Shown here in pieces: positions 5,796 to 58,864 of a stretch of DNA of 64,000 nucleotides. The DNA is from an uncultured virus (IMG/VR IMGVR_UViG_3300042319_001124) (lineage: Duplodnaviria > Heunggongvirae > Uroviricota > Caudoviricetes), in IMG/VR virus record IMGVR_UViG_3300042319_001124, one strand, 5' to 3'. The number at the start of each line of letters is the position of its first letter. The stretch's first letter is position 1. Under the pieces are notes generated by a model that was given only the letters and a program-made list of their open reading frames with translations, had not been told where the DNA came from and made no database searches. The translations under genes were made by a program, and so were the position numbers.

Positions 5796-6215
5796 CACAA
5801 ATAGATATGTGTTGGAAAACCCTCTCCTTCACATATCTACTTTTTTCAATTACAATAATTTGCTGTTATATACTATTAATAGCATTTTCTTATAATAAGT
5901 TAAAAAGCCTACACACAATCTGGTCATCCTTAATTACAGAGTGTAAACCTTTAGATATTAAATTAAGCTATGTTATCTATTGGACTTATTATTTTAATCA
6001 ATACATAGATGGGCTATTATATGCCAAGCATGTGGTAATGCAATGTATCCCAAAAAACTCAATAACTTTCCAAGATGTTGAGGACACCAGTTTCTTTAAG
6101 TTGTAAATATGCAGTGCTTAGTAATAAGTAATTAGTCCATACCATGTGGAGTGCAAAAATATCAGGTAACTATAAAGTTTTAGGTGTAAAACACAATCAT
6201 TTAATCCAACACAAG

Positions 6216-25530: not shown

Positions 25531-26197
25531 AGATGCTGCTTGGTTTCCTCAAGAAGAAGGAGTTACTACTCTTGTTGGTGGAGCAGGTGGTATAGGCAGT
25601 TGGTTAGCTTTTTTCCTGTCTCGGATAGGATATAAAGTTAACATTTATGACTTTGACTTAGTGGAAGACCACAATTTAGGTGGACAATTATTTACTGAAA
25701 AAGATTTAGGTAGATCTAAAGTATCTGCTGTATCTAATATGGTATATAGTTTTTCAACAAATAGGGATATAAGAACTCACGCAGAGCCTGTTACTATAAA
25801 CACTCCTACTCATTGGTTTTGTTTTTCTGCTTTTGACAATATGGAAGCAAGAAATGCATTATTTGAAGTATGGAGAAGGTCTTGGGAAATTGTTCCTGAA
25901 GGTGTTACTCCTTTATTTATTGATGGTAGACTAGAGTTAGAGCAATTACAAGTATTTTGTGTAACTCCTGAAAATGCAAATAGGTATAAAACAGAACATT
26001 TATTTGATGACAGCGTTGTAGAAGAAGCTCCATGTACTATGAAGCAAACTTCTCATACTGCAGCAATGATAGGTTCTATTATGACTGCATTTTTCACTAA
26101 TCATATCGCTAACACTTATGCAGAAGAGACTATCAGAGAAGTCCCTTTCTACTATGAATTTGTAGTTCCTATGAACTACACTTACAGTGAGATATGA
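25499..26197 (+). CDS. E1/ThiF-family adenylyltransferase
   Basis: VGGAGGIGS, YDFDLVEDHNLGGQ, AFDNMEAR, IDGR; candidate catalytic Cys in EEAPCT. Confidence 0.9.
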   Translation: MAQNLQNSRFKDAAWFPQEEGVTTLVGGAGGIGSWLAFFLSRIGYKVNIYDFDLVEDHNLGGQLFTEKDLGRSKVSAVSNMVYSFSTNRDIRTHAEPVTINTPTHWFCFSAFDNMEARNALFEVWRRSWEIVPEGVTPLFIDGRLELEQLQVFCVTPENANRYKTEHLFDDSVVEEAPCTMKQTSHTAAMIGSIMTAFFTNHIANTYAEETIREVPFYYEFVVPMNYTYSEI

Positions 26198-42000: not shown

Positions 42001-45000
42001 AAGTCCTTTAGCCTCTGGAGCAGAAACTCCTTCTTCAGTCAGTTCTAATTCTAATTGACGTACTTTGCTTTCTTCTGTTAACTCTTCAATCAAGTCAGCC
42101 TGTTCTCTAGCAAAATCCATAGAAAGAACCTTGTTGATTTTCTTTTGTACTTCAGGATTAGGATTATTAAATACAGCAGAGTGTATTCTAATAAAGTCAT
42201 TCTCAAGAAGTTTTTGAGTTAACTTAGCTTCTATGTTAGCATATTTTTCTTTCTGAGATGCCTCATCATTTAAAACCTCTTGTAATAAATCTTCTCCAAA
42301 GAATTTAGCTAAATCAATTCTACCTTCTCCTTCTAAAGCTCCATACTGACCTAGTAACTCTGCAGCTTCTTCAGGTAAAAGATTTCTTTGAAGTTTTATT
42401 CTTTGTAATTCTAGTTTGTCTAAAACTTTTTGTATTTCCTTTAAAGTCTTTTCTTTATGTTTTTCAGAAAAAACTTCAACTTTACCTGTTTTATAATCAG
42501 TAATATGGTGTAATTGATATACATTTTCTTTATCAACATCAAAGTCAAGACCTTTTTGTTTAGTAAAGTTTTTAGGTACAATCATTAAGTCTCCACTTTC
42601 AGGAGGAAGGATACCAGCTATCTCAATAGTAGATGCAGATACATGTGAAGAGGTAGGAGTTCTAAAACTAAACTGAGCTAATAACTCAGGATCTATTACT
42701 CCATCTTTTAATCTCCAAGTACCATTCTCTCTTTTCTCAATATAAATGTTCTCTCCTTTTTCATTTTTAGCAAACAAGTCTACTAACTTACCTTGACTAT
42801 CTTTGAATTTAGAAGGTACAAATACTTGAGCTTTTTTAAATTGTCTTACACCATTTTCATCAGCCTCTGCATGAAGTACTCCTTTAAGTTCTTTTCCATC
42901 ATAATCATCCATAAAGATAATTCTGGATTGGTCTATACCTTCAAGGTTTTCTTTAAATCCAAATCCATTTTCAGAAGCAGCTACAAATGAGTTTCCAGGA
43001 ATCTTGTGTTTAACTAATCTATTACTAACAATAGCATTCAATAAAGATTCGTATCTATTACTGTTTGTAGATAACCACAATGGAATATTAAACTCATAAT
43101 ATGGATTACCTTGGGTATCATAAAGAGTTTTTAATTCAAGTCCTTTAATATCTTTTAAAGGGTAGTTTCTTTCAAGAGCTTCTTTCTGTAATAAATTCTG
43201 AACTTTTAAAATTGTTTCAGTTTCATTAATAGGAGTACCTGTAGAATCTAATCCAAGTTCAGTATACAACTGTTGTTTTTTACTTTCTACAAGAGCCTGG
43301 AAAGTAGCATTATATTCATCATATAATTTTTCCCCTTTGTAAGTTTTACCTTTATATTCAAAACCTTCTATGTCTAAAATCCCATCTCCAAATAATAATT
43401 TAAAGATTTGAGTTCCCATAGATATCTTATCCTCTTTCTTCTTGTCAGATTTAAAAGGTACATCCTGTTGAATTCTAAAATTATTTCTATCTAGTTCAAC
43501 CATGGCTGCTTCAATGTTCTGAAGACTTTGTGGATTTAAAGGGTCTACAGTATTAGCATCTATTACAGCACCTACCTTATTAGCAGACTGATAAGAAGCT
43601 CTTACAGGCATTCCATACCCTCCTTGGTCTGCAGGTTTTTCTAAGTTTTCTAAAGCAACTCTCAAGTTGTCAATTTGCAAACCTGCAGTAAGTTCTTTGA
43701 TTAAAGGAAAAGAAGAAGACTTAATATAAATAGGTCTTGACATATCTTTTTCAGAATCTAAAGTTTGACCAGTATATACAGGTTTAATAGGCTGCATAAC
43801 TAATTTTATATCTTCATAAGCTAGAGTATCTCCTCTTTCTACTTTGTCTAAGATTCTTTTGTAATCATCTTCAGAAAGTCTTTCTTGATTGTAAAGGATT
43901 CCAATATGTTCTTTTACTGTAGTATACTCTTGAGCATCAGTAGTATCAATATCAAAGTAATCTCCAATAGAAGGAAATAAATCTTGTAGTCCTTTTCTTA
44001 CTACAGCTTGACTAGCAGGAGTTAAAGTAGGATACTTGTCAATCATATCTGATACAGTACTTCCCATAAAAGATTCTTTCAATCTTTCTTTACCTTCATA
44101 TAAAGAAATAAGGTACTTGCTATTTTGAGAAATACCTTTGTCATCTTTTAAGAATACTTGTTTGTATTTAGCATCTTTAGAATCAGCTAAAGTAGTTCCA
44201 GGAGCAGAAAGATAAGCTAACCTTTTACCAATATTTACTCCTTGTTTCTTAGCAAGTTTCATATAAGCAGCATCACTACTCATAGCATAAGGAGGAGTAT
44301 CTTTTTCAAAGTTTTTGTCTTGTGAAAAGAAAGCTGGGTCTCCTGCTATAGTTGAGAAAGTGTCTGCATTAGTTAATACAGAGTTTAAAACAAAGTCATA
44401 AGCTGCGTGTTTTAATCTTTCTTCTATAGTTACATTAGCAGGATTAGAAGCTAAGTAAGCACTGTCTAAGAAATTAACTTTTGTAATATTGCCTGCTGCA
44501 TCTTTTTCTACAAAAGAATCAAAAGCTTCTACTTTCTGTTGAGCTAAACTGTGCATTACATCTTCTACAACATTGATAAGGTCTTCTTTAAATAATGCCT
44601 CTACATCTTCTACAGATTTTTGAGTTAAGTGTTGGATAATTCTATACCCATCTTTGTCTTTTACATTATTTAAAGCAGGAATCATATTAAAGATTTGTGC
44701 TGCTTTGTCATAGTCTTTTACAGAAGTTTCTTTTACACTTCTATGAAAGTTAGAAATTCTTTTTAATTCAGGTAATACCAATTTTTGGTACAACAATTCT
44801 CTTAAGTCTTCAGTAAAGATAAGTTCTCCTTCATTATCTGTTTCAAAAGCAGAGTTAGATTCTTTCATAAAGTCTATTACTGCAGTATTTAAAACAAGCA
44901 TTTGAGATTTATCTGACATAGTAGGCAAGAACATTCTAGCCATTCTCATTCTAAATCCTCCTTCTTTAAAAGTAGCAGGAACTTCTCCTTGTTGTTGGTC

Positions 45001-48000
45001 TTGGAAGAAGCCTAGTTTAGTAAGTTCATGGTCTACAATATTTAAGTCAGTGATAGAAGAAAAAGAATTTGCTTTCTTTCCATACTGTTTCAAGGCTGTA
45101 ATACCTAAATGGTTTAATTCTAATTTTTTTGCAAAATCAGGATATTCCATTAGTAATTTTAACATAGTAGAACCTGAACCTATAGAAGTATTTCTTAAAT
45201 CAGAAATCATTTTCTTATCTTCAGACATAGCACTTCTAATCAAATCATCTACTCTATTTGTAACATAGGTAGGATTAGTTATACCTGTAATACTTTTTTG
45301 TCCATCTCTAAAAGAAGTACTAGTTGTTCTATTAGTAAATCTACTTTCTCCTTTAGAAATGTTTTTAAGAACTCCAGACATATCTTTAAAAGGATGTGCT
45401 TTAGGATTCTCTTCAAATTTTAAGTTTTGAATATAGTTTACATTTTGAGGATTAGTTATTCTATCTAAGTAAATACCTAAGTATCCCATAGGAGTATTAG
45501 GACTAGAAAACAATAAATTATAAGGAATGTATTTTCCTTTATCCATCATCCCTACTTCTTTTAATTCTCTCCAGTACTCATCTGAGAAATCTATACCAAA
45601 ATTAGATAACCAATTTCTTATAACTTGATCATCTTGTAAGTGCCCTTCTGTACCCCAAGACTTGTATTGATCATATAATTTTATTGCAGTATCCCTGTTT
45701 ATAGAATACTGTCCTTTGTCTAAAACAACTAAAGGTGAAGTAGTAAAATTATTAGCCCAAGTATTGGTAATAACTCTAGTGATTTCATTAGCATTAGTAT
45801 CATAAACTTGAAGTTTAGGGTCTTTAGATCTGTTATCATACATCATGAACTTCATGTTGATAGCATGTTTTCTATAGTTTAATACAAGACCTTTTCTTAA
45901 TTGTTCATCTGCATTATCATACTTCTCTATTAATTCTTTTATCCAAGGATGTGTATTAGACATCTGAAGAAGTTTAGCTTTCATAGTATTATAGTCTGAT
46001 TCAATGTAAACACCTGAACCTAATAAACTATAAATAGAGTCATAGATTTCATTGAAAGACATGTACTGAGGAAGATCTAAGAATCCTTTAACAGGTTGTC
46101 CTTGGTTATCTACTTTAGTAATACCAGACATAAATCTTTTTTGTCGGAAACTAGTCTTAGTCTTAAAGTTTTCAGTCAAAGCAGCAGCATCATCAAAAGT
46201 TTTTTCTCTTAATGATAAATCTTCTTCTTCCTCTTCTTGCTCTTCAACTGCTTCTTTGTTCTCAGATATGTCAGAGGTTTCAGAAACTTCTTGAATAGCT
46301 TTCTCTAAGATACCTACTTGACCTGTATAAGGTAATCCTGATACAGTTAATACTTTTTTAATGTTGTCAACATTCCAGTTTTTCTCTAAATTCTCTAAAG
46401 CTTGTAAAGCTGCTTTTAAAGAATTTATAGTGTTTGCTAATTGTGGGCTAGGAGTAGCAGCTTGTAAAGCTTCCACTTTTTCTAAAACTGTATTTATGTT
46501 TTCTATTGAAGGACTTACAATATCTTTAAAAGAATTTTGTAACTTCTTCATTAACAATGCTTTATTAACTTTACCTTTAAATTCACTATCAATAAGAGCA
46601 TTAATGTATTGAACAGTAAAGTTTAATAGTTGAGATTCTTGAGCTATAGAAAGTCCTGGAGTAGTATTTAAGATATTTCTTAAGTGCTCTACACCATTCA
46701 TTGTTACAGGCATTGCTTGTATTTGCTGAGTACTAAAACCTAACTTAGACAATAAGTCATTAGCTTTTTGTATTACCTCATCTGGAGATTCTACTTTAGC
46801 AATTTCTTCTTTTATTTGTTCTGCCTCTATTTTATTTTGTTGTGTCTGAGTTACAGCATTTTGTTCAGGCATTCCTGTTTCATATTCAAATACAATCTTA
46901 GGTTGTATTGAAGTAGCATATACAGGTTTATCTGCAGTACCCACATTAAAAGATTTTACATCTGTCTTAAGTGTAGTTTTTAAATAGTCTGAATAAGTTT
47001 TATTAGTAGAAACAACTTTACCATTTACAATCATAGGTACAGTACAGTTCTTCTGTAAACCATCTCTTGAAGTATGTTGAGCAAAAGTATTTAAGTTACC
47101 TGTATATAAAGTTCTACCAAATTGAGCATTAGAATCTCCTGATCTAGGTTGCATAAACAATTTAAAGAAACTAGAAGCTTCTTCAAAGTTCATTAAATTA
47201 TACCCTGTCAAAGCTTTAATGTCTTTAATAATTTCTTTAGCTTGTTCAGGAGTTAATTGGTATTCAGGAGGTAAAAAATCATTTCTTACTTCTTGAATAA
47301 TTTTTGACTTCTTAGAACCTTGTAAAGTTTCTTTATGGTCAAAGAAAGAATATGCAGACCAAGCCCACTTAATTGTTTCTAGTTCTTCTTCTTTAGGATA
47401 TCTTACAACATTAAAAGCTCTCCAAGTTTCTCTTCCTTGTTCATCTACACCTATTCTTCTTAAGTGCCAAGTAGTTCCTTGTTTCTTTTGAGCAATTTCA
47501 TTTTTATTTACTATGACTCTTTTTTCATTTTCAAAAGCCATGTTGTTTCCTTTTTCTAAAACATTTTGTTTACCTTGAGTAACAATATGAGAATCAGGAT
47601 TAGCTTCTTCTATAGTGTATAGTGGAAGTAATTTTCCAGTGTTAGGGTCAACTTTATTAGCAATAGAATAATAAGGTCCTTCTGTTTTTTCTTTTATTTT
47701 AATTTTAGAAACCTGTTTAGAAAAAACTGATTGTCTAAACTTACTTGCAGCTACTCTAGCATCATCAATAGCTTGTTTATGAGCTAAAGTAATACCTCTA
47801 GGATTTATAACTCCTGTTGCATTAGCAGGGTCAGCTACATTCCATTCATTATACCAAGAAGAATCATGGATATAAGCTAAAGGAGTACCTTTGTTATCAT
47901 AAGCAAACATAGGCACTGACTCAACAAACTCAACAGTATTTCTGTAGTTAGGGTCTTTTTCTTCTTTTTCTTTTAAGATATCTGCATAAGATTTTAGAAT

Positions 48001-51000
48001 AGGTTTATTCTGTTGGTCTCTTCCTACATTAATCATAATAGTAGACCAAGAATCTTCAGGAGCTACTCCTACATTGACAGAGTCTCCAGGATTATACATG
48101 TCAGGATTAAGTAAATCCTTATAGTCAATCTGAGTGTTCTCATCATTAAGACTATCAGTGATAACTGTTTGTCTAATAAATGTACCTGTACCAATACCTT
48201 GAGCATCTAATATCTCTACTTCTTCGTATCTAATAGCATTAAAACCTAATCTTAAAGCAGGACTAGTTATTCTATTTTCATTCTCAGTTCTAATAGGAAC
48301 ATTATTCTCAGTAAAATTATTAATAGAAGTTTGATTAGATTCTACTTGTCTTAATTCTACAGGAGAGTTTTCTCTTAAAGAATCTTCTGTTTCTGTAAAA
48401 GAGTTTTGAGAACCATAAATACTTTCAATAAAAGAATCTGCAGCTAATATGCTATCTCTAGAAGGCTCAAATATTTCATTGTAAACATCATCATAGTTAG
48501 TAGCTGCAAAACCATTTGCTTCCCAACCAGCTCTATACATATCAAAGAAAGTCTCTGCTTTTACTTTATTGGTAAACTTAATAAAGTGGTATACCATTTC
48601 TTTAAAAGAAGGTTCTCTACCAAATTGTTTTTTAAGGTCTTCATGTACTTTACCAATAACTTGCTTAAGACCTTTAAGAGCATCTTCTGTAAGATTTGTA
48701 GCAGGGTTTAATTGGAAAGTAGATAAAGTATCTTCTTCATCAATAACTATTTCATCAGGATCAAAATCTCCTTCAGGACTAATAATGTTTTCAATATCAG
48801 ATTGAGCATTTTGAATTCCTTCTGCTACTGTCTCTAAAGAGTTAATAGGTTTGTCTTCTTCTGTTTCTTTTTTACCAGGAAGAGTCATATTATGATTTAA
48901 AGCAAAAGCTAATGCCTCTGCTTCTGGATCAGATAAATGAGGAAACTGTTCTCTTAACTGTCCTCTAGTCATACCCATACCTTGGGTAGCTAAATCTACT
49001 ATTAATGGTAAACTACTTTCTACTTTTTCAATATAGTCATTATCGTATTTATCATTTTCTAAAATGACAGGATGACTTAAAAGAATTTCTCTAGCAGTAT
49101 CTACATTTTCTTCATAAGCTTCAATCTCTTCCTGAGAAGCCATCTCTACATTATCTTCTTCAAACAATCTTAGTTGAGTGCCTTCTATAGGATTTAACTT
49201 AGCATCTTCTTCTGCTTTCTTTTTATCTGCCTTTTTTTGTTTTTGCTCTTGAATTACTATCTGAGCTTGATCATATAAAGAGTTAATACGATTATTAGCT
49301 TGCATTGCTCTTTGAGCTTCTTGAATCTCAACCATGTTCAAGTAGTCTTGCTTGATAGCTTCAAAGTCTTTTTCTTTTACTCCTTGAGTAGAAATAACAC
49401 GATTAAAAGTGTGCTCAATAAAATCTTTTCCTATTCTAGCTTTACCATTAGAATCTATTTCTAATCCAAGAGAAGAAAGATTATTAGCTTCTGCAAATTC
49501 AATACTATCTCTAATTTGTTTATTGATAGCTCTTTTAACTTCTTGGTTTTTAAGTAACTCTGCTTCTCTTGTAGAACTTGTCTCTTCATTAAACAATTTC
49601 ATAGTTTCTCTGTGAGAGTATCTCATTTCTTCTTGAGTCTCTAACAATCTAATATAAGCTTGAATAGCAGGACTATTAGCTTCATCAATACTTTTTACAA
49701 AAGCAAAAGTACCATCTTCCATCTCCTCTTGAGTAAAAGGATTGTCATTTAAGATAGTATCAATGTCAGCATCTTTTAAATGATCAGGAGCATTGCTTCT
49801 TAAGGTTTCTAGTTCTTCATTAGCCAGAGCTCTTTGAGTACTTATCTCTGAAGAAATATTTTGAAGACCTTGTTTTATAGCTAATTTTTTATTTGCTAGG
49901 TCTACTATAGTATTTACATTAGTTCTACCTTTATATTGTTCATGAGTACTTTTTATCTTTTCAATCTTTTCTTTAGCTAACTGAATGTTTTGAAGAGTTT
50001 CAGGAGACATACCACCTTCCCCTAAAGAACTCTGAGATCTTTTTAATAGGTTATCTAAAGTCATCTCAAATTGATCTAGAGTATTTGTTTGCATAGCAAT
50101 AGTTGCCATATTAACAAATTTCTTTTGTTCTAGTTCATCTGCAGCTTTGAATTGTTTTTTATCTCTTAGTTCTTCTATCTTAGCATCATAGTCAGCAATA
50201 CTGTAATTGGTACCTGCAGTACTCATTACAATAGTGTTTGCTAAATCTTCATCTGTAACTGCTTTGTCAATGGCTTTATATTTTTTAATGATGTTTCTTT
50301 TTGCATCATACATTTTTCCATTTTGTCTCCAGTTAATTGCAGAAGAAACTCCTCCTACAGTAGTAAACATTCCTCCCATCATTGCAGTCTGAGCAAGTAC
50401 ATCTACATAGAAAGAAGGATCTTTTAATTGTTTTAATTGCTCAGAGTAATCTCTATTAATTGAAGGAGTTAACTGAGACAATACTTCTTCAAACATCTCT
50501 TCAGGTAATCCTTGTATAATTCTATTTGAACCTGTTCTGTAAGCTGCTTTACCAGTAATCTTACCTACAACAGAATTTGTATATCTCTCTGCTCCTTCTT
50601 TGTATAGGTTTGAAACTCCTTTGTAAGCTTTTGTAGTAAGGTGAGTAGGCTTTAAAGCAAACTTACCTATTTCAGTTTTTGCAGCCCAACCTGCTACTTT
50701 ACCTAATGCTTTTCCTGCTATTTCTCCTCCTGCTAATTCAATAAAGTTTTCTTTAGCAGTTTCCCAAGTTCCATAAGCAGCACTTTCAAACCAAGACTTA
50801 GGTCTTAAAGTATTAAACTCTTGATTTAGTTGATCTTGGTCACTTTCTATTTGATCTAATCTTTCTTTTTCTTCTTCTGATAAATTTTCTTTAGCTTGTA
50901 ATTTTGCTTTCTCTTTTTCAAGTAAAGAATTTTTATAGTTATAGTCTCTTTGATATGCTTTAAAAATACCATCTCTTACAAGATATCTATTTTCTCCATC

Positions 51001-52398
51001 ATTGTCTTTTATTATTTCTATGCCTCCATTATGTTCTTGTAAAGTATTTGTTCCAGAACCAGGAGATAAAGGAGAACTAAGAACTGCACCTGTAAGTTGA
51101 GCTGTTTTTTGTAAACCATACAAACCTATCTTTCTTTGTAAAGATTTTCTAACAGTGTTTTTTAATACACTTTTTGTTAGAGTCTTACCTAAAGTAGACT
51201 CTATTAATCCTTTTTCAATAAGTGCAGTAGGACCTCCAGTAAAGAACATTTGTTCCATAAATACAAGAGAGTCTGCAGTACCATCAGCATGTCTATACCA
51301 ATCTACTCCATCTTTTTCAAACATACCTGCAGTAGCCTTATTTTGTCTAAGGTCATCATGTACTGCATTAGTTTTTATTAATTGTTGTTCAGCATAAGTT
51401 AAAGAATCAAAAGCTGCTTTCTCATTTCCTAATTCATTAATAAGTCTATTAAACTTATTTATAACAGGAGTTTTGTAAGCAAGCTCTTCTGTAAAAGAAT
51501 ACAAACCTAAAGTCATTAAGTCTGATCCTTTGTTTTTAAGACCATCCCATACATTGTTTTTTCCTTTTAAGAAATCATCAGTGTATTTAATAGTCTCTTG
51601 TCTTTTTCTCATTGCTGAGTTAAGAATAGCTAACTCATCTAATTCACCTGAGTCTTGTTTTGTATCTGAACCTGGAAGATATATTTTAGACATCAAATCT
51701 TTAAAAGACATGCTTTGCATTCTTTTTTCATCTGCTTTTCTGTCTTTATAAATTGTACCTGCTAATTTATCTCTTTGTATTTTATCTTGGGTTTGTTCTG
51801 CCCAAAGTTTTTGATTAAGAAGTTTAATAGTAGGAGTAATCTCTTTATTAATTTCAGTCTGAGTTTTTGTAATAGCAGGTTTAAGAGCAGCTAGTTCTTT
51901 TTCTTCTGTATCTGATCTTCCCCATTTATTTTCCTCACTTGCAAAAACATCTCTTAATTTCCAGATAGGTGCAAAAATATTAAGACCATTCTCATCCCAT
52001 AAATCTGTTGACTTATTTTCTATCTGAGTCTTTCTTTCTTTTTGTTTATCAAGGTTTCTAAGTTTTGTTTTAAAGTCTACAAACTTTTTATCATCCTTTA
52101 ATACTTGTTTGTGTAACTCTTCAAGATCATTTTGAGGTTTAGCTAAGTAAGCCTCTCTTTCTTTTTTAATCTGTTTAAACTTTTCATTATCTAAAACATT
52201 TTGTCTAGAAAAAGAAGCAAGTTTACTAGCTCTGTCTCCTGCAAAACCTTGATTAGAAGCTTCTAACTGTTCTGCTGATACACTATAATTTCCACCTGCA
52301 GTTTGTGTAATAAAATCTTGAGGAGCCCCTTGTCCTGAAGCTTCTTGGGTAAAGGCTTTATCAAAAGCATTGCTAGTTTTTTTCTTAGGTTGAAGCAT
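39010..52398 (-). CDS. Virion-packaged RNA polymerase with C-terminal zincin domain
   Basis: 4462 aa; catalytic GLDFDVDK (42532-42546), FRTPTSS, TTDAQ; HELVH (39685-39699). Confidence 0.9.
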   Translation of the reverse strand: MLQPKKKTSNAFDKAFTQEASGQGAPQDFITQTAGGNYSVSAEQLEASNQGFAGDRASKLASFSRQNVLDNEKFKQIKKEREAYLAKPQNDLEELHKQVLKDDKKFVDFKTKLRNLDKQKERKTQIENKSTDLWDENGLNIFAPIWKLRDVFASEENKWGRSDTEEKELAALKPAITKTQTEINKEITPTIKLLNQKLWAEQTQDKIQRDKLAGTIYKDRKADEKRMQSMSFKDLMSKIYLPGSDTKQDSGELDELAILNSAMRKRQETIKYTDDFLKGKNNVWDGLKNKGSDLMTLGLYSFTEELAYKTPVINKFNRLINELGNEKAAFDSLTYAEQQLIKTNAVHDDLRQNKATAGMFEKDGVDWYRHADGTADSLVFMEQMFFTGGPTALIEKGLIESTLGKTLTKSVLKNTVRKSLQRKIGLYGLQKTAQLTGAVLSSPLSPGSGTNTLQEHNGGIEIIKDNDGENRYLVRDGIFKAYQRDYNYKNSLLEKEKAKLQAKENLSEEEKERLDQIESDQDQLNQEFNTLRPKSWFESAAYGTWETAKENFIELAGGEIAGKALGKVAGWAAKTEIGKFALKPTHLTTKAYKGVSNLYKEGAERYTNSVVGKITGKAAYRTGSNRIIQGLPEEMFEEVLSQLTPSINRDYSEQLKQLKDPSFYVDVLAQTAMMGGMFTTVGGVSSAINWRQNGKMYDAKRNIIKKYKAIDKAVTDEDLANTIVMSTAGTNYSIADYDAKIEELRDKKQFKAADELEQKKFVNMATIAMQTNTLDQFEMTLDNLLKRSQSSLGEGGMSPETLQNIQLAKEKIEKIKSTHEQYKGRTNVNTIVDLANKKLAIKQGLQNISSEISTQRALANEELETLRSNAPDHLKDADIDTILNDNPFTQEEMEDGTFAFVKSIDEANSPAIQAYIRLLETQEEMRYSHRETMKLFNEETSSTREAELLKNQEVKRAINKQIRDSIEFAEANNLSSLGLEIDSNGKARIGKDFIEHTFNRVISTQGVKEKDFEAIKQDYLNMVEIQEAQRAMQANNRINSLYDQAQIVIQEQKQKKADKKKAEEDAKLNPIEGTQLRLFEEDNVEMASQEEIEAYEENVDTAREILLSHPVILENDKYDNDYIEKVESSLPLIVDLATQGMGMTRGQLREQFPHLSDPEAEALAFALNHNMTLPGKKETEEDKPINSLETVAEGIQNAQSDIENIISPEGDFDPDEIVIDEEDTLSTFQLNPATNLTEDALKGLKQVIGKVHEDLKKQFGREPSFKEMVYHFIKFTNKVKAETFFDMYRAGWEANGFAATNYDDVYNEIFEPSRDSILAADSFIESIYGSQNSFTETEDSLRENSPVELRQVESNQTSINNFTENNVPIRTENENRITSPALRLGFNAIRYEEVEILDAQGIGTGTFIRQTVITDSLNDENTQIDYKDLLNPDMYNPGDSVNVGVAPEDSWSTIMINVGRDQQNKPILKSYADILKEKEEKDPNYRNTVEFVESVPMFAYDNKGTPLAYIHDSSWYNEWNVADPANATGVINPRGITLAHKQAIDDARVAASKFRQSVFSKQVSKIKIKEKTEGPYYSIANKVDPNTGKLLPLYTIEEANPDSHIVTQGKQNVLEKGNNMAFENEKRVIVNKNEIAQKKQGTTWHLRRIGVDEQGRETWRAFNVVRYPKEEELETIKWAWSAYSFFDHKETLQGSKKSKIIQEVRNDFLPPEYQLTPEQAKEIIKDIKALTGYNLMNFEEASSFFKLFMQPRSGDSNAQFGRTLYTGNLNTFAQHTSRDGLQKNCTVPMIVNGKVVSTNKTYSDYLKTTLKTDVKSFNVGTADKPVYATSIQPKIVFEYETGMPEQNAVTQTQQNKIEAEQIKEEIAKVESPDEVIQKANDLLSKLGFSTQQIQAMPVTMNGVEHLRNILNTTPGLSIAQESQLLNFTVQYINALIDSEFKGKVNKALLMKKLQNSFKDIVSPSIENINTVLEKVEALQAATPSPQLANTINSLKAALQALENLEKNWNVDNIKKVLTVSGLPYTGQVGILEKAIQEVSETSDISENKEAVEEQEEEEEDLSLREKTFDDAAALTENFKTKTSFRQKRFMSGITKVDNQGQPVKGFLDLPQYMSFNEIYDSIYSLLGSGVYIESDYNTMKAKLLQMSNTHPWIKELIEKYDNADEQLRKGLVLNYRKHAINMKFMMYDNRSKDPKLQVYDTNANEITRVITNTWANNFTTSPLVVLDKGQYSINRDTAIKLYDQYKSWGTEGHLQDDQVIRNWLSNFGIDFSDEYWRELKEVGMMDKGKYIPYNLLFSSPNTPMGYLGIYLDRITNPQNVNYIQNLKFEENPKAHPFKDMSGVLKNISKGESRFTNRTTSTSFRDGQKSITGITNPTYVTNRVDDLIRSAMSEDKKMISDLRNTSIGSGSTMLKLLMEYPDFAKKLELNHLGITALKQYGKKANSFSSITDLNIVDHELTKLGFFQDQQQGEVPATFKEGGFRMRMARMFLPTMSDKSQMLVLNTAVIDFMKESNSAFETDNEGELIFTEDLRELLYQKLVLPELKRISNFHRSVKETSVKDYDKAAQIFNMIPALNNVKDKDGYRIIQHLTQKSVEDVEALFKEDLINVVEDVMHSLAQQKVEAFDSFVEKDAAGNITKVNFLDSAYLASNPANVTIEERLKHAAYDFVLNSVLTNADTFSTIAGDPAFFSQDKNFEKDTPPYAMSSDAAYMKLAKKQGVNIGKRLAYLSAPGTTLADSKDAKYKQVFLKDDKGISQNSKYLISLYEGKERLKESFMGSTVSDMIDKYPTLTPASQAVVRKGLQDLFPSIGDYFDIDTTDAQEYTTVKEHIGILYNQERLSEDDYKRILDKVERGDTLAYEDIKLVMQPIKPVYTGQTLDSEKDMSRPIYIKSSSFPLIKELTAGLQIDNLRVALENLEKPADQGGYGMPVRASYQSANKVGAVIDANTVDPLNPQSLQNIEAAMVELDRNNFRIQQDVPFKSDKKKEDKISMGTQIFKLLFGDGILDIEGFEYKGKTYKGEKLYDEYNATFQALVESKKQQLYTELGLDSTGTPINETETILKVQNLLQKEALERNYPLKDIKGLELKTLYDTQGNPYYEFNIPLWLSTNSNRYESLLNAIVSNRLVKHKIPGNSFVAASENGFGFKENLEGIDQSRIIFMDDYDGKELKGVLHAEADENGVRQFKKAQVFVPSKFKDSQGKLVDLFAKNEKGENIYIEKRENGTWRLKDGVIDPELLAQFSFRTPTSSHVSASTIEIAGILPPESGDLMIVPKNFTKQKGLDFDVDKENVYQLHHITDYKTGKVEVFSEKHKEKTLKEIQKVLDKLELQRIKLQRNLLPEEAAELLGQYGALEGEGRIDLAKFFGEDLLQEVLNDEASQKEKYANIEAKLTQKLLENDFIRIHSAVFNNPNPEVQKKINKVLSMDFAREQADLIEELTEESKVRQLELELTEEGVSAPEAKGLAPRANNNFTILSDDYQKNKMGLGAAGKMAIGIYSNYVTLHSLIQQTRRPIRMVGEYDPVSKKYEPKEINIGGQVSKGVLGLVNTLDGSRSIAEAFAERQNTATDNEKEQILGRVNISSHTIGVDSLLTLLGYDKTSYIDDQNNRKDLSLSYAILSQPIIKEYVEELQKSRGVTAEYNPNAEQEIIEKLFAKYQTGTKFEDISSDILTGNNLIDGIRKSGLNGDVQVAALKLFTELNDYAKNMAKVQSVVGLRQLDKSIFETHLRYEDLENLGKNKSFENISSLIGDFIPVEENLIKPEGYQVIGSFFVKPTTPQGSIVVNSLKAAKTLWADFFPYDDPYLKKVMESVFISSGVPTDSKFKQVEAFQDVFDEVKKYLNSWNKFGIFEGTATSERQRLFIDTNTNMSLANYLNSNSREALIAANKLLNRFTYEVQTDGRPSLIKFNNTISDDLNEKYLYNTFAEMIINDSPLPDFNGQPFSTRLLAQELITYSFIEGGVQEATQFIKYVPLEYLEEVGIKEEGKFVSTASLLQRLNTKRNPELFKHLLGDINTIQGKSLFIKQYFQHNPEKTTVMTPTKLGLTDEEIREADTIALVGKDFYPDFFHVKIKTYSKLKQHKYDLFQHLGSGQYVKVPVLGTTGMNEYQAGYNKVNSVFTKQKEAPKSEVRTEKSGQPTLSGTTGTLISNNVTAASVIESIANSTNKNMERYKFLAKALLPFVSPSLKITTGNSVEVYGAPVAGFYDEQKDYIFMDLAYASGKKGKEIGLFMHELVHALSVRELKKYYTADENGFFTVLDPSAPPHVVALDDIWKQAIASLDPKEVSSMKDKITLLRQKKQVNFTNRDTELNYAGIDIFEFLSLAMESEVFQKHLSEIPYNNGPLTLLQKFAEILKDLIRTISPDIKEDSLAEATLNTVLDFLETERAISEEMPNFEDFDSEISEEERNLLEQFELDREEMESQGFSEDIDLSQDSSEEAEENLLPVAEEEELPCNGGLAI

Positions 52399-52433
52399 GT
52401 TAAAAAGATTTTAAAATGTAAAGATAATAGTAT

Positions 52434-54503
52434 TTAATCAAATAATAAGTGTCCTACTTCAATTTGTAGACCAGGATCATTAAGAGAAACTGTTTTAGCT
52501 TTTCCATTAACTGTCCTTGTTACACTTCCAGCAGGATAAATTATTTTACCATTATTTTTAACAGCTCTTCCGTGGTATACATAATTACTATTAGGAATAG
52601 GAAAGTTTTCTACATTACGTGCATTCTTATCTAAGTAAGCAGTTGTCTTAAATCTTAAAGCATTATCTCCAGAATTAAGTTTTCTAGTCATTTCTGTACT
52701 AACTCCTTCTACTCTTCCAAAGTGAGTTTTACCACCTATAGTAACTCCAAAACCAAATTCAATGTCATCACTATCATTGTATCCCCAAATTGGTGTAAAG
52801 TTTCTTTCAGAAGTATCTAAGTTAATATATTCATTTCCATTTACAGCTTGAAACTGTGTAGCAATTCCTGTATTTCCAGCATATCCTGTAGGAGTATCTA
52901 CCTTAACCATTTTAATAACACCATTATTTATTAAGTCATTAATACTGAATTTAGCTCCATTAGTACCTCCTACATTTACACCTCCAATTTTAGTTCCAGG
53001 TTCAAAGTAAATAGGTACATCCATGTGTTTTCCTCCTTGGAAAAATTCTTTAGCTGCTGCTTTTTTCTGAATATCAGTCATACCAGTACCTTCCCAAGTC
53101 ATTTGTCTGTTTACAGGTTTACTAGCATTCTTACTTAAAAACTCATTCCATTTTTTTAATGTCTCAGGACTATTAGTAATATTATAATAACTTAAACCTG
53201 TGTCTTTACTAAACTGAGCAATTTGAGAATTTAATGCAGCTCTATCTACTTGTGCTCTTTTATATTGAGTTTGTGCAGCTCTACCTACAGGAGTATTAGC
53301 AATAGGACTAAAGTCTCCTTTTCTAATTTGCTCATATATCTTATAGTTTTTAGGACTAGTTCTAAATTGTTCTAGTCTATCATTAGCAGCTTCAGTAGGA
53401 TCTTTCTTATCTGACTTATAGTGTAAGTCAGCATAAGCTTGTAGACCTTTAGTAAGTGCTTGATTCTCATTATTTTTAGTAGAGGTATATGCACTATAAA
53501 ATTGGTTATTATCTCTACCTGCTATACTAGTAAGAGCCCCTCCTACTTCAGTAGTTAAGTTTACTGTATCATGTTCATCTTTAGCAATAGCATAACCAAG
53601 AGTATTCATAGTAGAACCTCCTCCTGTTGTAGTTTTATGTCCTCCATATTTTTCTTGCAGTTGATCCATAGAAGTTTTAAACCAACTACCTTCATCAAAA
53701 GAAACTGCTCCTTGGTCATTAAAACTACCTTGATAAGGAGCATAACCTAAATCTTTTCTTTGTTTTACAGCAGAAATTATTCCAGGATTAGTACTAAGGT
53801 GGTTAACCCACATATTTTGTAATTGTTCAGGAGTATAAAATTCTTCAGCAGTATCACTTTTAACAGTCCATCCTCCTTTATCTTGATTCCAACTAGTACT
53901 TTTATTATACCCTTTAATAGAACCTTCCATTAATTCTTTTAAAATCTCTGCAGAGTTTTTAAGCCCTAAAGCATCTTCAGTACTAATAGATTTATAATCT
54001 CCTGTTGGATCATAACTAGTTCCCCCTGCTTGATTAAATTCAGCCAATTTAGCAGCAGTTAATCTTTTAACCATGTCTGCATCATACTCATCAGGTTTAG
54101 CTTTAACTTTAGCTTTCAATTCTTCTTCCCAAGCATCATAGCTAGCTTTGTTACCTTGGATCTTAGCAACTTCTCCTGAAGTCCAATCTAATCCTATTTT
54201 CTTTTTAAGGTTGTTTATTTTAGGTATGTAAGAAGATGCATTCATAGCATCATTATAAATAGAATTAGTAATATCCTCAATTTGAGAAGAGTACCCTTGT
54301 CTAATTAATTTAGCCTTTTCTTCATCTACTCCTTGTAAAGCAGCTATCTTTTCAATCATACCATTTAAGGCATCATTAGATTCTATAGCAGTTTCTACTT
54401 GTTTATCTTTCTTGTCTATAACTGTCCCCATTAATTCATAAGGCAATTTAAACATTGCATCATCTAAGAAAGTAGCTTCTGTTCCTTTATAAAACTGTCC
54501 CAT
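52434..54503 (-). CDS. Virion cargo/ejection protein
   Basis: 689 aa directly upstream of the virion RNAP; N-terminal FKLPYE pattern. Confidence 0.7.
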   Translation of the reverse strand: MGQFYKGTEATFLDDAMFKLPYELMGTVIDKKDKQVETAIESNDALNGMIEKIAALQGVDEEKAKLIRQGYSSQIEDITNSIYNDAMNASSYIPKINNLKKKIGLDWTSGEVAKIQGNKASYDAWEEELKAKVKAKPDEYDADMVKRLTAAKLAEFNQAGGTSYDPTGDYKSISTEDALGLKNSAEILKELMEGSIKGYNKSTSWNQDKGGWTVKSDTAEEFYTPEQLQNMWVNHLSTNPGIISAVKQRKDLGYAPYQGSFNDQGAVSFDEGSWFKTSMDQLQEKYGGHKTTTGGGSTMNTLGYAIAKDEHDTVNLTTEVGGALTSIAGRDNNQFYSAYTSTKNNENQALTKGLQAYADLHYKSDKKDPTEAANDRLEQFRTSPKNYKIYEQIRKGDFSPIANTPVGRAAQTQYKRAQVDRAALNSQIAQFSKDTGLSYYNITNSPETLKKWNEFLSKNASKPVNRQMTWEGTGMTDIQKKAAAKEFFQGGKHMDVPIYFEPGTKIGGVNVGGTNGAKFSINDLINNGVIKMVKVDTPTGYAGNTGIATQFQAVNGNEYINLDTSERNFTPIWGYNDSDDIEFGFGVTIGGKTHFGRVEGVSTEMTRKLNSGDNALRFKTTAYLDKNARNVENFPIPNSNYVYHGRAVKNNGKIIYPAGSVTRTVNGKAKTVSLNDPGLQIEVGHLLFD

Positions 54504-54505
54504 GA

Positions 54506-57500
54506 TTATGTTACTTGAATTAATTTATTGTCTTTACCTAATTTAAACTTGGTCTTACCATCTGGACCTAAAAATATTTGTTCTTCTTTCTTGGTAGAAA
54601 CTGCATTTTTATTAGTTAATTTTCCTGATTTATCTACAGTGACATAAGTACCATAGTTTTGCATAAGATTTTCAATCATCTTGTTCTCTTTCATAGAGTT
54701 AAAGTCTGCTCCCATTTGTTGTAAACCTTTAGCAAAATCTTGTCTACCTTGAGTTAAAGCAGTAGTAAAAGCATCTTTGCTAGCCATGTTAGCCATATTA
54801 GTTTGGTACTCTCCTTGACCTTTCATCTGGTCTCTATTCATAAGAATACCTGTTTTAGTTTGACCTAATTGAGCAATCTGAGCTTGAGTATTTTTTACAA
54901 TTTCATTAGCAGCACTTGTAGCTGCAGTATCATATAACCAATTCATGGCTCTTTTTGTATTAACACTTCTAGTACTATTATTTGCTGACTTAGTAGCAGT
55001 TCTTTGTTGAGTAGTATTATTAACTAAAGCCTGAGCTTTTTGTCCTTCAATACTTGCTTGCATACCTTCAAGAGCTTTTAAAGCATCTTCTCCTGCTTTA
55101 GCAAATGGATTTGTCTGAGTGACATCAGAAGCTCTTTGATCATAAGCACCTTTCATTCCTGCAGTCATACCCATATAGTTACCTGCAAGTTTAGTAAGGT
55201 CTCCTATACTAGGAGCATTCCCTCCCATTTGTTCAAGAATAGTTCTGAGTTTACCAGAACCTTTTTCTTTTTCTGCAGTAGCTTCACCTTTAAAATTAGG
55301 AAAATTTTCTGATTGATAATCTATACTATCAGGTACAGAAGGATCTATTACTCCTGCAGGTAAAGGATTTTGTTTTGCCCAAGCATCTCCTGCACCTTTT
55401 AAAGCAAAAGGATCTGTAGTATCAAAAAGAGACATTCCTTTTTTTCTTGCACTAGGAGTATAAGTAGGATCAAAACCAGTAGGAAGATTAAAATATCCTG
55501 CTACTTGTCCAGGAGTACTTTTTTGAGGTCCATACCCATCAGGTGCTTTATTTTTATTTTTAGCTAACCAATCTTGTGAAGCTTTATAAGTAGTAGGACC
55601 AAAAATTTCTCCAAATTTTGGAGTCTTACTATCAATACCTAAATCTCCTTGAATGTATTTCATATCCATTACACCTCCAGGATTTAACTCATTGTATTTA
55701 TCAAAGAAATCTTTAAACATAGATGCATCATATCCTTTACCATATACAATTCCTGCAGGAGGAGTTCCTCCAGCATATTTCTTCATTCCTCTTGCACCTG
55801 TGCCATAACCATATCTCATAGAGTCTCCTATAGGATTATCTTGAATACCTTCCATAGCTGTACCAAAAGCAAAAGCTTGTACAGCCATATCAGCCATTTG
55901 TTGCATTTCATTAACTTGACCTTGGAAAGCTAAATCCATTTGTTGTTCTTTTTGAATAGCTGCCATCTTTCTTTTGATAGCATTCTTAACAGCTTGATCT
56001 ATATTAGGTTGACTAGCTTGTTTTTCAAGATTAGCAGTTTGTCTTTCTCTTGTAGCTTCTCTTTCAGCAATAGTTTTATCTCCTACTTTAAGTCTATCAG
56101 AAAAAATTTGTGTACCTTCAGGTGCTTGACCTTCTTTAGGATTAGCATTAGGGTCTTGAGTTACTTGTAAAGGAATACCATTTTCTTCATGAGTAGCTCC
56201 TTTAAATTCTCCTGTTTGACCTGCAGGAGTTTTATATCTTTCTCCGTCTTCAACTTCTACATCTTGCTGAACATTGTTCATTCCCATAGCAGCTTGAACA
56301 CCTACACCTAAAGAAGCATCAATATCTCCTCCTGTATTTATTCCTTTTTTAATTAAACTTGCTCCTTTAGATTCAGTAACTGCATCAGTATTTCCTGCTA
56401 TGTTTTTACTTCCTAACTTACCTGCAAGACTTCCAACAGCTTGTTGAGCAAGACCTCCAACAAGAGATACTACAGGTAACCAAGGATTACTCATAGATTC
56501 TTGACTTGCTTTTGCTAACATGATATCATAATCATTCATAGTTTCAGCAGGAGTCTCTATATAGTTAGAAGCCCCTATGCCTCCTAAGTTACTGCCATTA
56601 GCATATCTTTTTCTAGGGTTCATTTTTGATTTCATAATTCCTTCTTGATTAGTTCCGTTAGCAAACCTGTATTTAACACCTGCATTAATATTAGGTCCAC
56701 TTAAGTCAGAGTAGTTAACTCCTGCATTATAGTTAAACCCTTTTCCTTGTTGAAAAGCTTTAGTACTATAGTCTAAGGCTCCTGAAATAAAAGTATCTTC
56801 TGGATTTACTCCTGCCCCTATAGAACTATTTAAAGTTCCTACAGGTTCTCCTGAAGCTCCCATAATTTCATTATTAAAAGAAAGATTAGTATTGATACTA
56901 TCTCCTTCTGCATTCTTTAAATAATCCATAATAAGTCTTAACTTATCTGAACCTGCACTTACATTACCTGTAACAAACTCATTATCATTTGTTTTAGAAT
57001 AACCTAAAGAAGCATTTATATTCTTATTACCATAACCTGCATTAGCATTAAGGCCATAGTTTCCTTCAGGTCTTTGAGTAAACTCTCCAGAAGCATTGAA
57101 TCCTTTCTTATTAAAAGAACCTCCTACTCTTCCATACAAGTCTTCAGGATTAAATCCTACACCTGCATTTAAGCCAAAGTTTTTACTACTTGTACTAAAA
57201 CCTACATCAGCTAAACCATTAGAAGTTAAACTAGACTCATCAAATAGTTTTCTTTTATTAGGATCTACCCCTTCTGCATCAGTACCTAAAACATATTTTT
57301 TAGAAACATATTGTAAATTCCCTTGTTCATTTTCAATTAAATCTAAGTTCTTTTGTAACTCAGGGTTTAATGTATATGCCATTATCTCCATACCTCTAGT
57401 AGGATGTTTTTTAGATTTAAGCCATTCACCTGTTTCAAAATCAACTGAAGGCCAATGTCCTGTTTCATCTGGCATATACCCAAGCTCTAAAGCTCTTTTC

Positions 57501-58864
57501 ATATTATAATCTTCAGTACTAAGATTATTTGTTTTATAATCTGTTTGGAAAATATTTGAAGGTTTAAACAATCCTAAAGGAGGATCTCCTATCCCTTTTT
57601 TTCCTGTACCATAAGCAAGTTCTTGCTCTTCTCCAGGTATTTTTCCAATTAAATTAGGTTTTTTACCATCATCAGGTAATGCTGTTCCTGCATAAGCTCT
57701 AACTTTTTTATAAAAAGTATCTGCCTTTTCAGGATCTGTTTTAGAAAAATCATAAGAATCATATATCTCTGTTTCTCCTAGTGCATTCTTTTTATAAGAA
57801 ACTCTACCTAATATAGTAGCTGCTTGTATATCAGGGTCACTAGAAATCATTTGTTTCTTACCTGCTGACATTCCTTGAAAAGCTTTTTCAACTTCAGGGC
57901 TGTAATCAATGTATTGTGTTCCTCCTGAATCTTTACCTGTTCTTTTTTGAGCATTCTTTACACTCTTAATTAAAGCTTCTTGTTGCTCTGGAGTTAATTC
58001 TTCAAGTCCTAACTTATTATCTTTAGTTACAATAGCAGAAAGAAACTGAGCAGCCTGATCTGGTAACACAGTTCCTAAAACTCCTCTAGCTACTTTAGTT
58101 TTTAAATCTGAAGTAACAGGCACATTGTTCTGAGCTTTCCATTTTTCTAACTGAACTGAATTAGATATAGGTACATATTGTACTCCTTCTTCCTCTCCAG
58201 GTTTTTCTACTTTTCCATTTTTAGGATTAGTATTATAATAAACTACTTTAGGTTTTTTTGATTCAACAGGAGTTTCTTTTCTGTTTACAGCTCCTGCTAC
58301 ATCACTTAAAGTATTAACTGTATTTATAGTTGATACTGTTTCATTGATAACTCTTTTATTTGCAGGAGCCTTTTTTATAATTTCTTTAACTCCTTTTTTA
58401 GTAACCTTTTCAACTACTTTAGTAGCTTTTTGAAAAGCCTCTGCTCCCATTCCTATTCCCATACTTGCTACTGCTACGGGATTGCCTTTTCCTGCTTTAC
58501 TTCCTTGTTGAATTGTTTTTCCAACTTCTTTTCCGTACTTTAAAATTTTGGGTACAACTTTTTCAGCTTTTGATGTAACTTTATTTACTTTACTTAAAGC
58601 TTTTAAGTATTTACTTGTTGTATTTGCAATCTTAATTCCTTTACCTGCTTTACCTATAATAGGAAGAGCTCCTAAAACTTCTAATCCTGTTTCCCAAGAA
58701 AGTAGTCCATTCTTTTTATAACTTCTATAGACATCATCATAAGAAGATATCCCTGTAGGATCAAAGATTTCAAAAACATCCTCAGCTAAAGAATCTCCTT
58801 TCTTAGCATTACTGTACTTCTTATTTACAGAAGCTTTCTTATTTTTTTTATTAGGTTGTAACAT
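54506..58864 (-). CDS. Modular virion cargo protein
   Basis: 1452 aa; VEVEDGE...GATHEENGI region, repeated aromatic-x-x-G linker motifs, coiled-coil C-terminus. Confidence 0.75.
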   Translation of the reverse strand: MLQPNKKNKKASVNKKYSNAKKGDSLAEDVFEIFDPTGISSYDDVYRSYKKNGLLSWETGLEVLGALPIIGKAGKGIKIANTTSKYLKALSKVNKVTSKAEKVVPKILKYGKEVGKTIQQGSKAGKGNPVAVASMGIGMGAEAFQKATKVVEKVTKKGVKEIIKKAPANKRVINETVSTINTVNTLSDVAGAVNRKETPVESKKPKVVYYNTNPKNGKVEKPGEEEGVQYVPISNSVQLEKWKAQNNVPVTSDLKTKVARGVLGTVLPDQAAQFLSAIVTKDNKLGLEELTPEQQEALIKSVKNAQKRTGKDSGGTQYIDYSPEVEKAFQGMSAGKKQMISSDPDIQAATILGRVSYKKNALGETEIYDSYDFSKTDPEKADTFYKKVRAYAGTALPDDGKKPNLIGKIPGEEQELAYGTGKKGIGDPPLGLFKPSNIFQTDYKTNNLSTEDYNMKRALELGYMPDETGHWPSVDFETGEWLKSKKHPTRGMEIMAYTLNPELQKNLDLIENEQGNLQYVSKKYVLGTDAEGVDPNKRKLFDESSLTSNGLADVGFSTSSKNFGLNAGVGFNPEDLYGRVGGSFNKKGFNASGEFTQRPEGNYGLNANAGYGNKNINASLGYSKTNDNEFVTGNVSAGSDKLRLIMDYLKNAEGDSINTNLSFNNEIMGASGEPVGTLNSSIGAGVNPEDTFISGALDYSTKAFQQGKGFNYNAGVNYSDLSGPNINAGVKYRFANGTNQEGIMKSKMNPRKRYANGSNLGGIGASNYIETPAETMNDYDIMLAKASQESMSNPWLPVVSLVGGLAQQAVGSLAGKLGSKNIAGNTDAVTESKGASLIKKGINTGGDIDASLGVGVQAAMGMNNVQQDVEVEDGERYKTPAGQTGEFKGATHEENGIPLQVTQDPNANPKEGQAPEGTQIFSDRLKVGDKTIAEREATRERQTANLEKQASQPNIDQAVKNAIKRKMAAIQKEQQMDLAFQGQVNEMQQMADMAVQAFAFGTAMEGIQDNPIGDSMRYGYGTGARGMKKYAGGTPPAGIVYGKGYDASMFKDFFDKYNELNPGGVMDMKYIQGDLGIDSKTPKFGEIFGPTTYKASQDWLAKNKNKAPDGYGPQKSTPGQVAGYFNLPTGFDPTYTPSARKKGMSLFDTTDPFALKGAGDAWAKQNPLPAGVIDPSVPDSIDYQSENFPNFKGEATAEKEKGSGKLRTILEQMGGNAPSIGDLTKLAGNYMGMTAGMKGAYDQRASDVTQTNPFAKAGEDALKALEGMQASIEGQKAQALVNNTTQQRTATKSANNSTRSVNTKRAMNWLYDTAATSAANEIVKNTQAQIAQLGQTKTGILMNRDQMKGQGEYQTNMANMASKDAFTTALTQGRQDFAKGLQQMGADFNSMKENKMIENLMQNYGTYVTVDKSGKLTNKNAVSTKKEEQIFLGPDGKTKFKLGKDNKLIQVT

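Follow-up and report, generated by a model that had tools for sequence, protein, structure and literature searches.

The window analysed here, the first 64 kb of a complete 91,740-base crAss-like phage genome with direct terminal repeats (IMG/VR record IMGVR_UViG_3300042319_001124), encodes a 1452-residue protein that is C1-like by gene order, and residues 550-734 of this likely ejected cargo protein are a real, conserved accessory module with strong membrane-sheet character. The chances are about even that this sheet cassette is delivered by the virion, inserts into the host outer membrane from the periplasm, anchors the cargo and closes as an oligomer or an imperfect barrel.

Two-faced sheet and its predicted fold

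An earlier note on this DNA, made from its letters and open reading frames (ORFs), had placed an outer-membrane β-barrel-like domain inside a cargo protein at 56663..57217, a range corresponding exactly to residues 550-734, and the six strand-like peptides quoted there are all in frame in ORF 54506-58864 on the minus strand, within residues 563-734. The two repeated linker motifs said to bound the domain are found at 524-528 (YVLGT) and 734-738 (FANGT), the final Phe of the domain, residue 734, being the first residue of the second motif.

The period-2 amphipathicity of the fused domain exceeds that of composition-preserving shuffles (z 3.4, with 3/2000 as high), and for each of two standalone homologues 0/1000 shuffles were as high. 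With the faces fixed on the window protein, hydrophobic residues make up 75% of one face and 9% of the other in homologue P0007, 72% and 11% in P0028 and 71% and 0% in P0008, the polar face being composed of 61-74% Gly, Ser and Asn and 14-25% charged residues. This two-faced β pattern is kept in homologues down to 31% identity. Aromatic residues are located at the strand ends, as seen by eye in the face strings, and strands of 8-11 residues with such ends fit a bilayer.

AlphaFold, with alignments of seven rows for each model, predicts an all-β meander in both settings: the fused domain (pLDDT 77, pTM 0.67) has 13 strands, one broken strand being counted once, with connections of 2-7 residues, and the standalone form (pLDDT 79.5, pTM 0.63) has 13 strands with connections of 2-4 residues. 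When the fused model was submitted to VIA, 47 of the 50 matches listed had titles naming outer-membrane or organellar barrels (Z 7.9-10.3). The standalone model superposes on portions of large barrels, at 3.8 Å over 158 residues of 8b43 (Z 9.8) and 3.9 Å over 159 residues of 6r2q_B (Z 9.4); its best fits, 3.8-4.6 Å over about 150-164 residues, are to TonB-dependent transporters and the Mtr chain, barrels of 22 and 26 strands, so that the predicted sheet has the curvature of barrels in that size range and covers about half of one. For P0008, the Atlas model likewise agrees with portions of usher and LptD-type barrels (TM score 0.63-0.69). The fold searches brought no closed barrel of 12 or 14 strands to the fore, a result that leaves room for one. 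Both models look like half of a large barrel rather than a closed porin, the standalone one fitting better, and the shallow alignments may account for the lack of closure; the N-terminus, modelled at low confidence, might contribute a 14th strand, or the true fold might be 12 strands with a plug. Regarding the barrel likeness claimed in the earlier note, the membrane-type amphipathic β fold gained support and a closed porin gained none, as 13 strands are predicted and the models overlay on parts of larger barrels; the soluble sandwich, solenoid or disorder that the note had named as counter-evidence did not appear in AlphaFold or the fold searches.

The domain has no match above cut-off in Pfam, PHROGs or NCBIfam; the weak Pfam leads below it, a YadA anchor on the last strands of P0007 (E 0.0087) and LptD on P0011 (E 0.011), point in the same direction as the structural matches. 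Foldseek gave one unnamed viral row (E 3e-4, TM score 0.34). Within the fused form only, strands 2-5 resemble strands 10-13 (56663-57180, minus strand), with an NPED turn repeated 115 residues apart, hinting at an internal duplication in the sequence that is not kept in the standalone form.

A sheet that is open rather than closed in the models would also suit a soluble protein, with the hydrophobic face either lining a concave lipid groove of the TamB/AsmA or BPI kind or packed against another virion protein, that never crosses a membrane. The only profile matches in the PDB were to BPI, at a non-significant E of 0.53, and soluble single-layer sheets stand low in the VIA list (9cuy, 6orj and 4by2; Z 8.1-8.4). 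This reading is improbable, as the Gly/Ser/Asn-dominated polar face with its modest charge is more like a barrel lumen, judging by known barrels, the strand length and aromatic ends fit a bilayer, and the last strand has the β-signal pattern described below.

Insect attacins permeabilise membranes, and a Gly-rich amphipathic sheet might likewise lie on or insert into the outer membrane unaided, as a disruptor of membrane or lipopolysaccharide that loosens the entry site independently of the β-barrel assembly machinery (BAM). The ESM feature neighbours of both forms include Attacin_C (0.82, 0.85) and Gloverin (0.81, 0.84), values below the 0.9 bar that serve as leads only. However, Pfam gave no attacin or gloverin match (PF03769/PF10793) at E<=1, the domain is not cationic, with a net K+R minus D+E of about -6 to +1 per 100 residues, and the conserved G-x-x-Y-x-F end would not be needed for such an action, making it quite improbable.

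The last strand and export signals

The β-signal of outer membrane proteins (OMPs) is given as GXXΦXΦ, some OMPs having the motif only internally, in the excerpted text of PMC13067283. The reading of GVKYRF at the end of the domain as a strand resembling such a signal was supported by comparison: the sheet cassettes end in G-x-x-Y-x-F in 10/10 fused homologues, which are relatives in three subtypes and not independent cases, and the full motif is present at 0/19 other pre-core junctions. Of those 19 junctions, 13 have a linker starting with Leu and 2 one starting with Phe. Since the terminal Phe doubles as the hydrophobic first slot of the linker, it is not independent evidence, and the specific part is the preceding Gly and Tyr, which are part of the sheet and are retained where the basic residues are not. 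The standalone forms have Leu for the first aromatic residue of the signal. As for chance, of 100,000 shuffles of the domain only 0.18% have GxxΦxΦ at the end, a share of 1.7% where the last residue is already aromatic, and the motif arises by chance 22 times in the 28,925 residues of the genome's 84 ORFs.

No hydrophobic signal region was found in the first 40 residues of nine fused and three standalone proteins, the best nine-residue hydropathy on a simple scale being at most 1.17 in 12/12. OmpA has an internal β-signal with a periplasmic tail after it, and a similar arrangement here would need no cleavage.

The same features could describe a decoy of BAM, in which the ejected 13-strand sheet would bind strand 1 of BamA, be unable to close and release, and stall the machinery as a hybrid barrel, thereby weakening the outer membrane or blocking receptor assembly for competing phages; superinfection exclusion and Bam interference, both proposed in the earlier note, would be rivals to the anchor. 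A conserved β-signal-like last strand on an odd-stranded, apparently open sheet agrees with this, an often-swapped accessory cassette fits a role in conflict, and both the pairing of the β-signal with BamA strand 1 and inhibitor mimicry are described in the excerpt of PMC13067283. Nevertheless, the last few strands would suffice for a decoy, yet all 13 keep their two-faced pattern and number at 31% identity, and about 12 copies per virion, as given for crAss001 in the excerpted PMC10172136, would be greatly outnumbered by BamA, for which the excerpt of PMC13067283 quotes 3-4000 copies in E. coli. A decoy is thus rather improbable.

Linker-bounded cassettes and the standalone form

PHROG 15413, gp30 of the cultured Flavobacterium phage FpV4 and the close relative L007 all start near residue 744, so residues 1-743 of the window protein are an extension. 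A search with the core among proteins of 798-2541 amino acids, a range that leaves out short forms by design, gave 28 proteins including the query, and P0005 brought the set to 29. Their extensions consist of a leader and zero to few modules, each closed by a ten-residue linker with the consensus [YLF]-A-x-G-[TS]-x-x-x-G-[IVML] (134 matches). The linker DNA is at most about 70% alike over 54 nt, and the repeat is therefore one at the protein level.

The sheet module is present in 10/29 long relatives, always as the last module before the core (10/10), and is missing from the other 19/29 as well as from L007, L009 and FpV4. On a quick tree of the cores with 32 rows (the 29 plus these three), its presence requires at least seven gains or losses, compared with a shuffled mean of 8.8, and 58/500 shuffles were as low; in addition, the sheet of P0005 is 87% identical to that of the window, while the P0005 core falls among those of carriers of other subtypes. 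The simplest reading is that the sheet cassette was repeatedly gained, lost or swapped. Among close relatives, the cassette is conserved at 74-92%, above its flanks.

As most relatives do without the module, an essential role in DNA passage is unlikely, and the genome or cargo passage proposed in the earlier note found no footing as an essential function. A conduit for DNA or cargo through the outer membrane would suit a cassette lying ahead of the portal-bound region of a protein that is likely ejected first, and a 26-strand dimer would be wide. Against this stand the relatives lacking the cassette, cultured FpV4 included, and the helical nature of described ejection pores such as DEV gp73 (PMC11445570, in excerpt), so that an essential conduit is extremely improbable.

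The cassette array shows that a C1-like cargo protein, likely ejected first, can carry variable payloads. Other cassettes are shuffled between the same linkers in P0003-P0007, P0014-P0036 and the window (57296-58864, minus strand), amounting to at least five further module families with no Pfam or PHROG match, and each of these linker-bounded cassettes is a candidate delivered effector. One of them, of 103 residues (57296-57604, minus strand), has a GHWPS...KSKKHPT stretch, is found in 1/29 relatives and has no family match. The leader contains, at about 58640-58770 on the minus strand (residues ~33-75), a conserved DPTG...LGALP helix pair with no Pfam match, reminiscent of pre-toxin TG modules. 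In L007, the DNA before the start of the short form (5938-6003) resembles the linker DNA before Met744 in the window, a sequence likeness consistent with an extension added or lost at this junction.

A standalone form of the domain is also known. A HMMER scan of 1.84 billion representatives gave four hits including the query, among them the 210-residue P0008 (E 9e-5), which shares 31% identity with the fused domain over 189 residues; two further standalone clusters were found afterwards. In L004 and L005, unrelated phage-like contigs, the standalone gene lies between a small basic gene and GroEL/GroES, with lysis-like and virion-like genes downstream, as read from the ORFs (PHROGs named few). 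None of 34 loci found via the neighbouring GroEL, some with little upstream DNA, carries the standalone gene, and L011, whose GroEL is 98% identical, has a different gene in this slot, so the standalone gene is accessory too. The protein lacks a signal peptide, and its C-terminus is Phe-Gly followed by basic residues, a tail common to small neighbouring proteins that may be a packaging tag. These GroEL/GroES contigs encode small Lys/Met-rich proteins ending in Phe and a basic tail, and have a variable slot just before GroEL (L004 4536-5356; L005 6344-7164 and 9819-10055; L011 5407-5968; L015 2887-3060). The standalone gene was not found in the viral contig collection searched, a scan of 185,579 prokaryote genomes with exact peptide patterns, of limited sensitivity, gave no relatives of the domain, and tblastn of cultured phages gave one row for the fused domain (E 0.7) and none for the standalone form.

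The cassette could be a passenger without a folded role after ejection, namely a captured gene that the flexible extension tolerates, or packing material, whose pattern is a relic. That 19/29 relatives do without it, and that the standalone gene occupies a variable slot and is absent from 34/34 GroEL loci, would be expected of a passenger. Its conservation above the flanks among close relatives would not be, nor would its keeping the same number of strands, the two faces and the end motif at 31-44% identity, or its fixed place before the core, and such a role is very improbable.

Cargo assignment, proposed delivery and known systems

Among the products of the genome are a crassvirus major capsid protein (PF23898, E 1.7e-160), members of three ring-protein families and a muzzle. 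The cargo gene has its nearest cultured relatives in 29 records of FpV4-type phages of Flavobacterium psychrophilum, and for this reason a Flavobacterium-like host is likely. The nine sequencing runs holding at least a quarter of the stretch are lake-water metagenomes, three of them being marked as possible sources of the window. The sheet-to-core junction at 56663 is bridged without differences by contigs of X5 and X8, two runs that carry no such mark, so this junction is not an assembly artefact, and the sheet cassette is a single copy in the genome. Four lake runs yielded no cassette-less variants; the only joints had one side shorter than 31 letters, and rare variants are lost from contigs.

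The order of the muzzle gene, the cargo gene and genes for 689 and 4462 amino acids is that of crAss001 gp44-gp47, and the C1 assignment rests mainly on it. As described in the excerpt of PMC10172136, gp45 of crAss001 is present in the virion, binds the portal through residues 425-552, is expected to be ejected N-to-C and is expected to help form a transmembrane channel. The core aligns with this portal-bound stretch at 37% identity over 65 columns in hhalign, a weak match (E 0.016, probability 2.9%). The sequences show repeated linkers of an aromatic-Ala-x-Gly-Gly type in gp45 and aromatic-Ala-x-Gly-Thr in the present protein. No proteomics of this lineage was found in the literature search, and no RNA dataset is listed among the runs holding the stretch. 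The features of the region are collected in Table 1.

Table 1. Features of the cargo gene region (window positions)
Feature	Position	Strand	Basis
C1-like cargo protein, 1452 amino acids: modular N-terminal extension (1-743) and conserved core (744-1452)	54506..58864	-	PHROG 15413 from residue 744; FpV4 gp30 against 743-1419
Leader (1-~250) and further module (~251-415), both found in other relatives in different order	57620..58864	-	
Linker LAYGTGKKGI (416-425)	57590..57619	-	
Second cassette (421-523), single member among 29 relatives	57296..57604	-	No family match
Upstream linker YVLGTDAEGV (524-533)	57266..57295	-	
Amphipathic β-sheet cassette (550-734), 13 predicted strands, turns of 2-7 residues	56663..57217	-	
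β-signal-like last strand GVKYRF (729-734)	56663..56680	-	Motif definition from PMC13067283 (excerpt)
Downstream linker FANGTNQEGI (734-743), Phe common with last strand, followed by the core	56636..56665	-	
Part of the core (884-962) with likeness to the portal-bound domain of crAss001 gp45	55979..56215	-	Weak hhalign match
Muzzle gene directly upstream, continuing to 64370 in the genome	58893..64000	-	PF25731 (E 2e-36), PF25729
Downstream genes for 689 and 4462 amino acids, in the places of crAss001 gp46 and gp47	39010..54503	-	Assigned by gene order

An internal restart at Met744, producing the short form, was considered and is unsupported: with a matrix trained on this genome, the sequence upstream of it ranks with 18% of 515 internal ATGs and above only 10% of 62 gene starts, the true start being also modest. 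As for a phage protease acting on the linkers, no peptidase family was found among 75 Pfam queries from the genome, most genes of which are unannotated. In the variable middle between core blocks, residues 663-687 of P0003 give a faint PG_binding_1 match (E 0.013), which, although below cut-off, fits a periplasmic core; the equivalent region of the window (~55540-55700, minus strand) and the other relatives gave no such match. Further window genes are spore photoproduct lyase-like (PF20903, 30482-31327, plus strand), of the ThiF family (25499-26197, plus strand) and for a GH108 lysin (691-1269, minus strand).

In the mechanism that we propose, the cargo protein whose N-terminal extension has the sheet as an interchangeable, dispensable cassette is, by analogy to crAss001 gp45, likely packed in the virion and ejected early and N-to-C into the host envelope, so that the cassette would leave before the portal-bound domain. 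It would arrive unfolded in the periplasm, needing no Sec signal, and its last strand would engage the host BamA as an internal β-signal, leaving the core as a periplasmic tail; cleavage would not be required, although it might occur at the linker. The sheet might then close with a second copy (26 strands) or as an imperfect barrel of 12-13 strands and, once in the outer membrane, would anchor or tether the rest of the ejected protein, as an accessory anchor or auxiliary pore rather than an essential DNA conduit. Going by the strand count, 13 strands would leave the two ends on opposite sides, with the upstream modules outside and the core inside. A more specific version is possible but unlikely, in which the half-barrel is a 13-strand, signal-free BAM substrate brought by the virion into the periplasm, where it either dimerises to form a 26-strand pore next to the ejection channel or remains bound to BamA as a hybrid barrel; it would then belong to a group of interchangeable envelope effectors mounted by crAss-like phages on a cargo protein divided by linkers.

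Several observations weigh against a virion-delivered sheet anchored in the outer membrane. An odd count of 13 strands and the lack of long loops are unlike bacterial OMPs, for which an even strand number and common outer loops of 11-25 residues are stated in the excerpt of PMC13067283. Strand 1 and the region preceding it are the least confident parts of both models, the rmsd of the fused model to whole barrels in VIA is 6.6-12.6 Å, and Foldseek against the PDB gave no match at E<=0.001, the TM score by query being at most 0.36. The hydrophobic face may be convex and lipid-facing or concave, as in a groove. In both settings the terminal Phe is also part of a phage tag, which is the linker in the fused form and the F-G-basic tail in the standalone form. 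Homology to gp45 is weak, with no PDB sequence match and no Pfam C1 match for the protein. Finally, the crAss001 tail space of about 0.4 MDa gives room for 12 copies of 245 residues, according to the excerpted PMC10172136, and a 743-residue extension at 12 copies exceeds it, a difficulty for any simple model as well.

If the proposed delivery is correct, a β-sheet brought by the virion would be a second entry route into BAM, whose substrates normally arrive through Sec, and a route, so far undescribed, by which a phage could place a protein in the outer membrane of its host; an odd-stranded half-barrel would also be unusual among bacterial membrane proteins. Cultured FpV4, which is without the cassette, offers a natural control. 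If the module is soluble or inert, a new accessory domain family and a cassette architecture remain. No description of such a module was found in the literature searched, mostly open-access papers, on phage and crAss cargo, ejection, attacins and barrels, and no β-barrel ejection case is found in the excerpted preprints on ejection.

Comparing the module with known systems, the gene of crAss001 gp45 likewise follows that of the muzzle immediately and precedes those of the remaining cargo proteins and the RNA polymerase, the protein having similar linkers and a weakly similar portal-bound stretch; however, the predicted membrane element of gp45 is one helix (136-158), with no β-sheet module described in the excerpt of PMC10172136, and only the present protein has the 743-residue modular extension. 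FpV4 gp30 (Fipvunavirus) is the closest cultured relative of the core, with 31% identity over 743-1419 and the same gene order, but has 598 amino acids, begins at the core start and lacks both extension and sheet.

The podophage ejection proteins T7 gp14, P22 gp7 and DEV gp73 are also signal-less and delivered by the virion into the outer membrane, according to the excerpted PMC11445570; they are conserved channel parts, gp73 with hydrophobic helices, whereas the present module is an optional β-sheet. Phage-encoded OMPs, such as E1A206 of Aeromonas phage phiAS5, share the membrane-type β character, with weak Foldseek rows (E 2.5e-2 and 2.2e-3, TM score ~0.3). Those of the Lom/Ail type are separate genes whose products are exported by Sec in the infected or lysogenic cell, unlike the present module, which is without signal peptide and fused into a cargo protein. 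Bacterial outer-membrane barrels (porins, TonB-dependent transporters and those of LptD/MtrB size) differ in that the present module has 13 predicted strands, no long loops, no signal peptide, a motif internal to a virion-type protein and no family match above cut-off; nonetheless, it resembles them in its alternating hydrophobic and small polar faces, aromatic strand ends, strands long enough to span a membrane, the GxxΦxΦ motif of its last strand and its partial structural overlay on such barrels.

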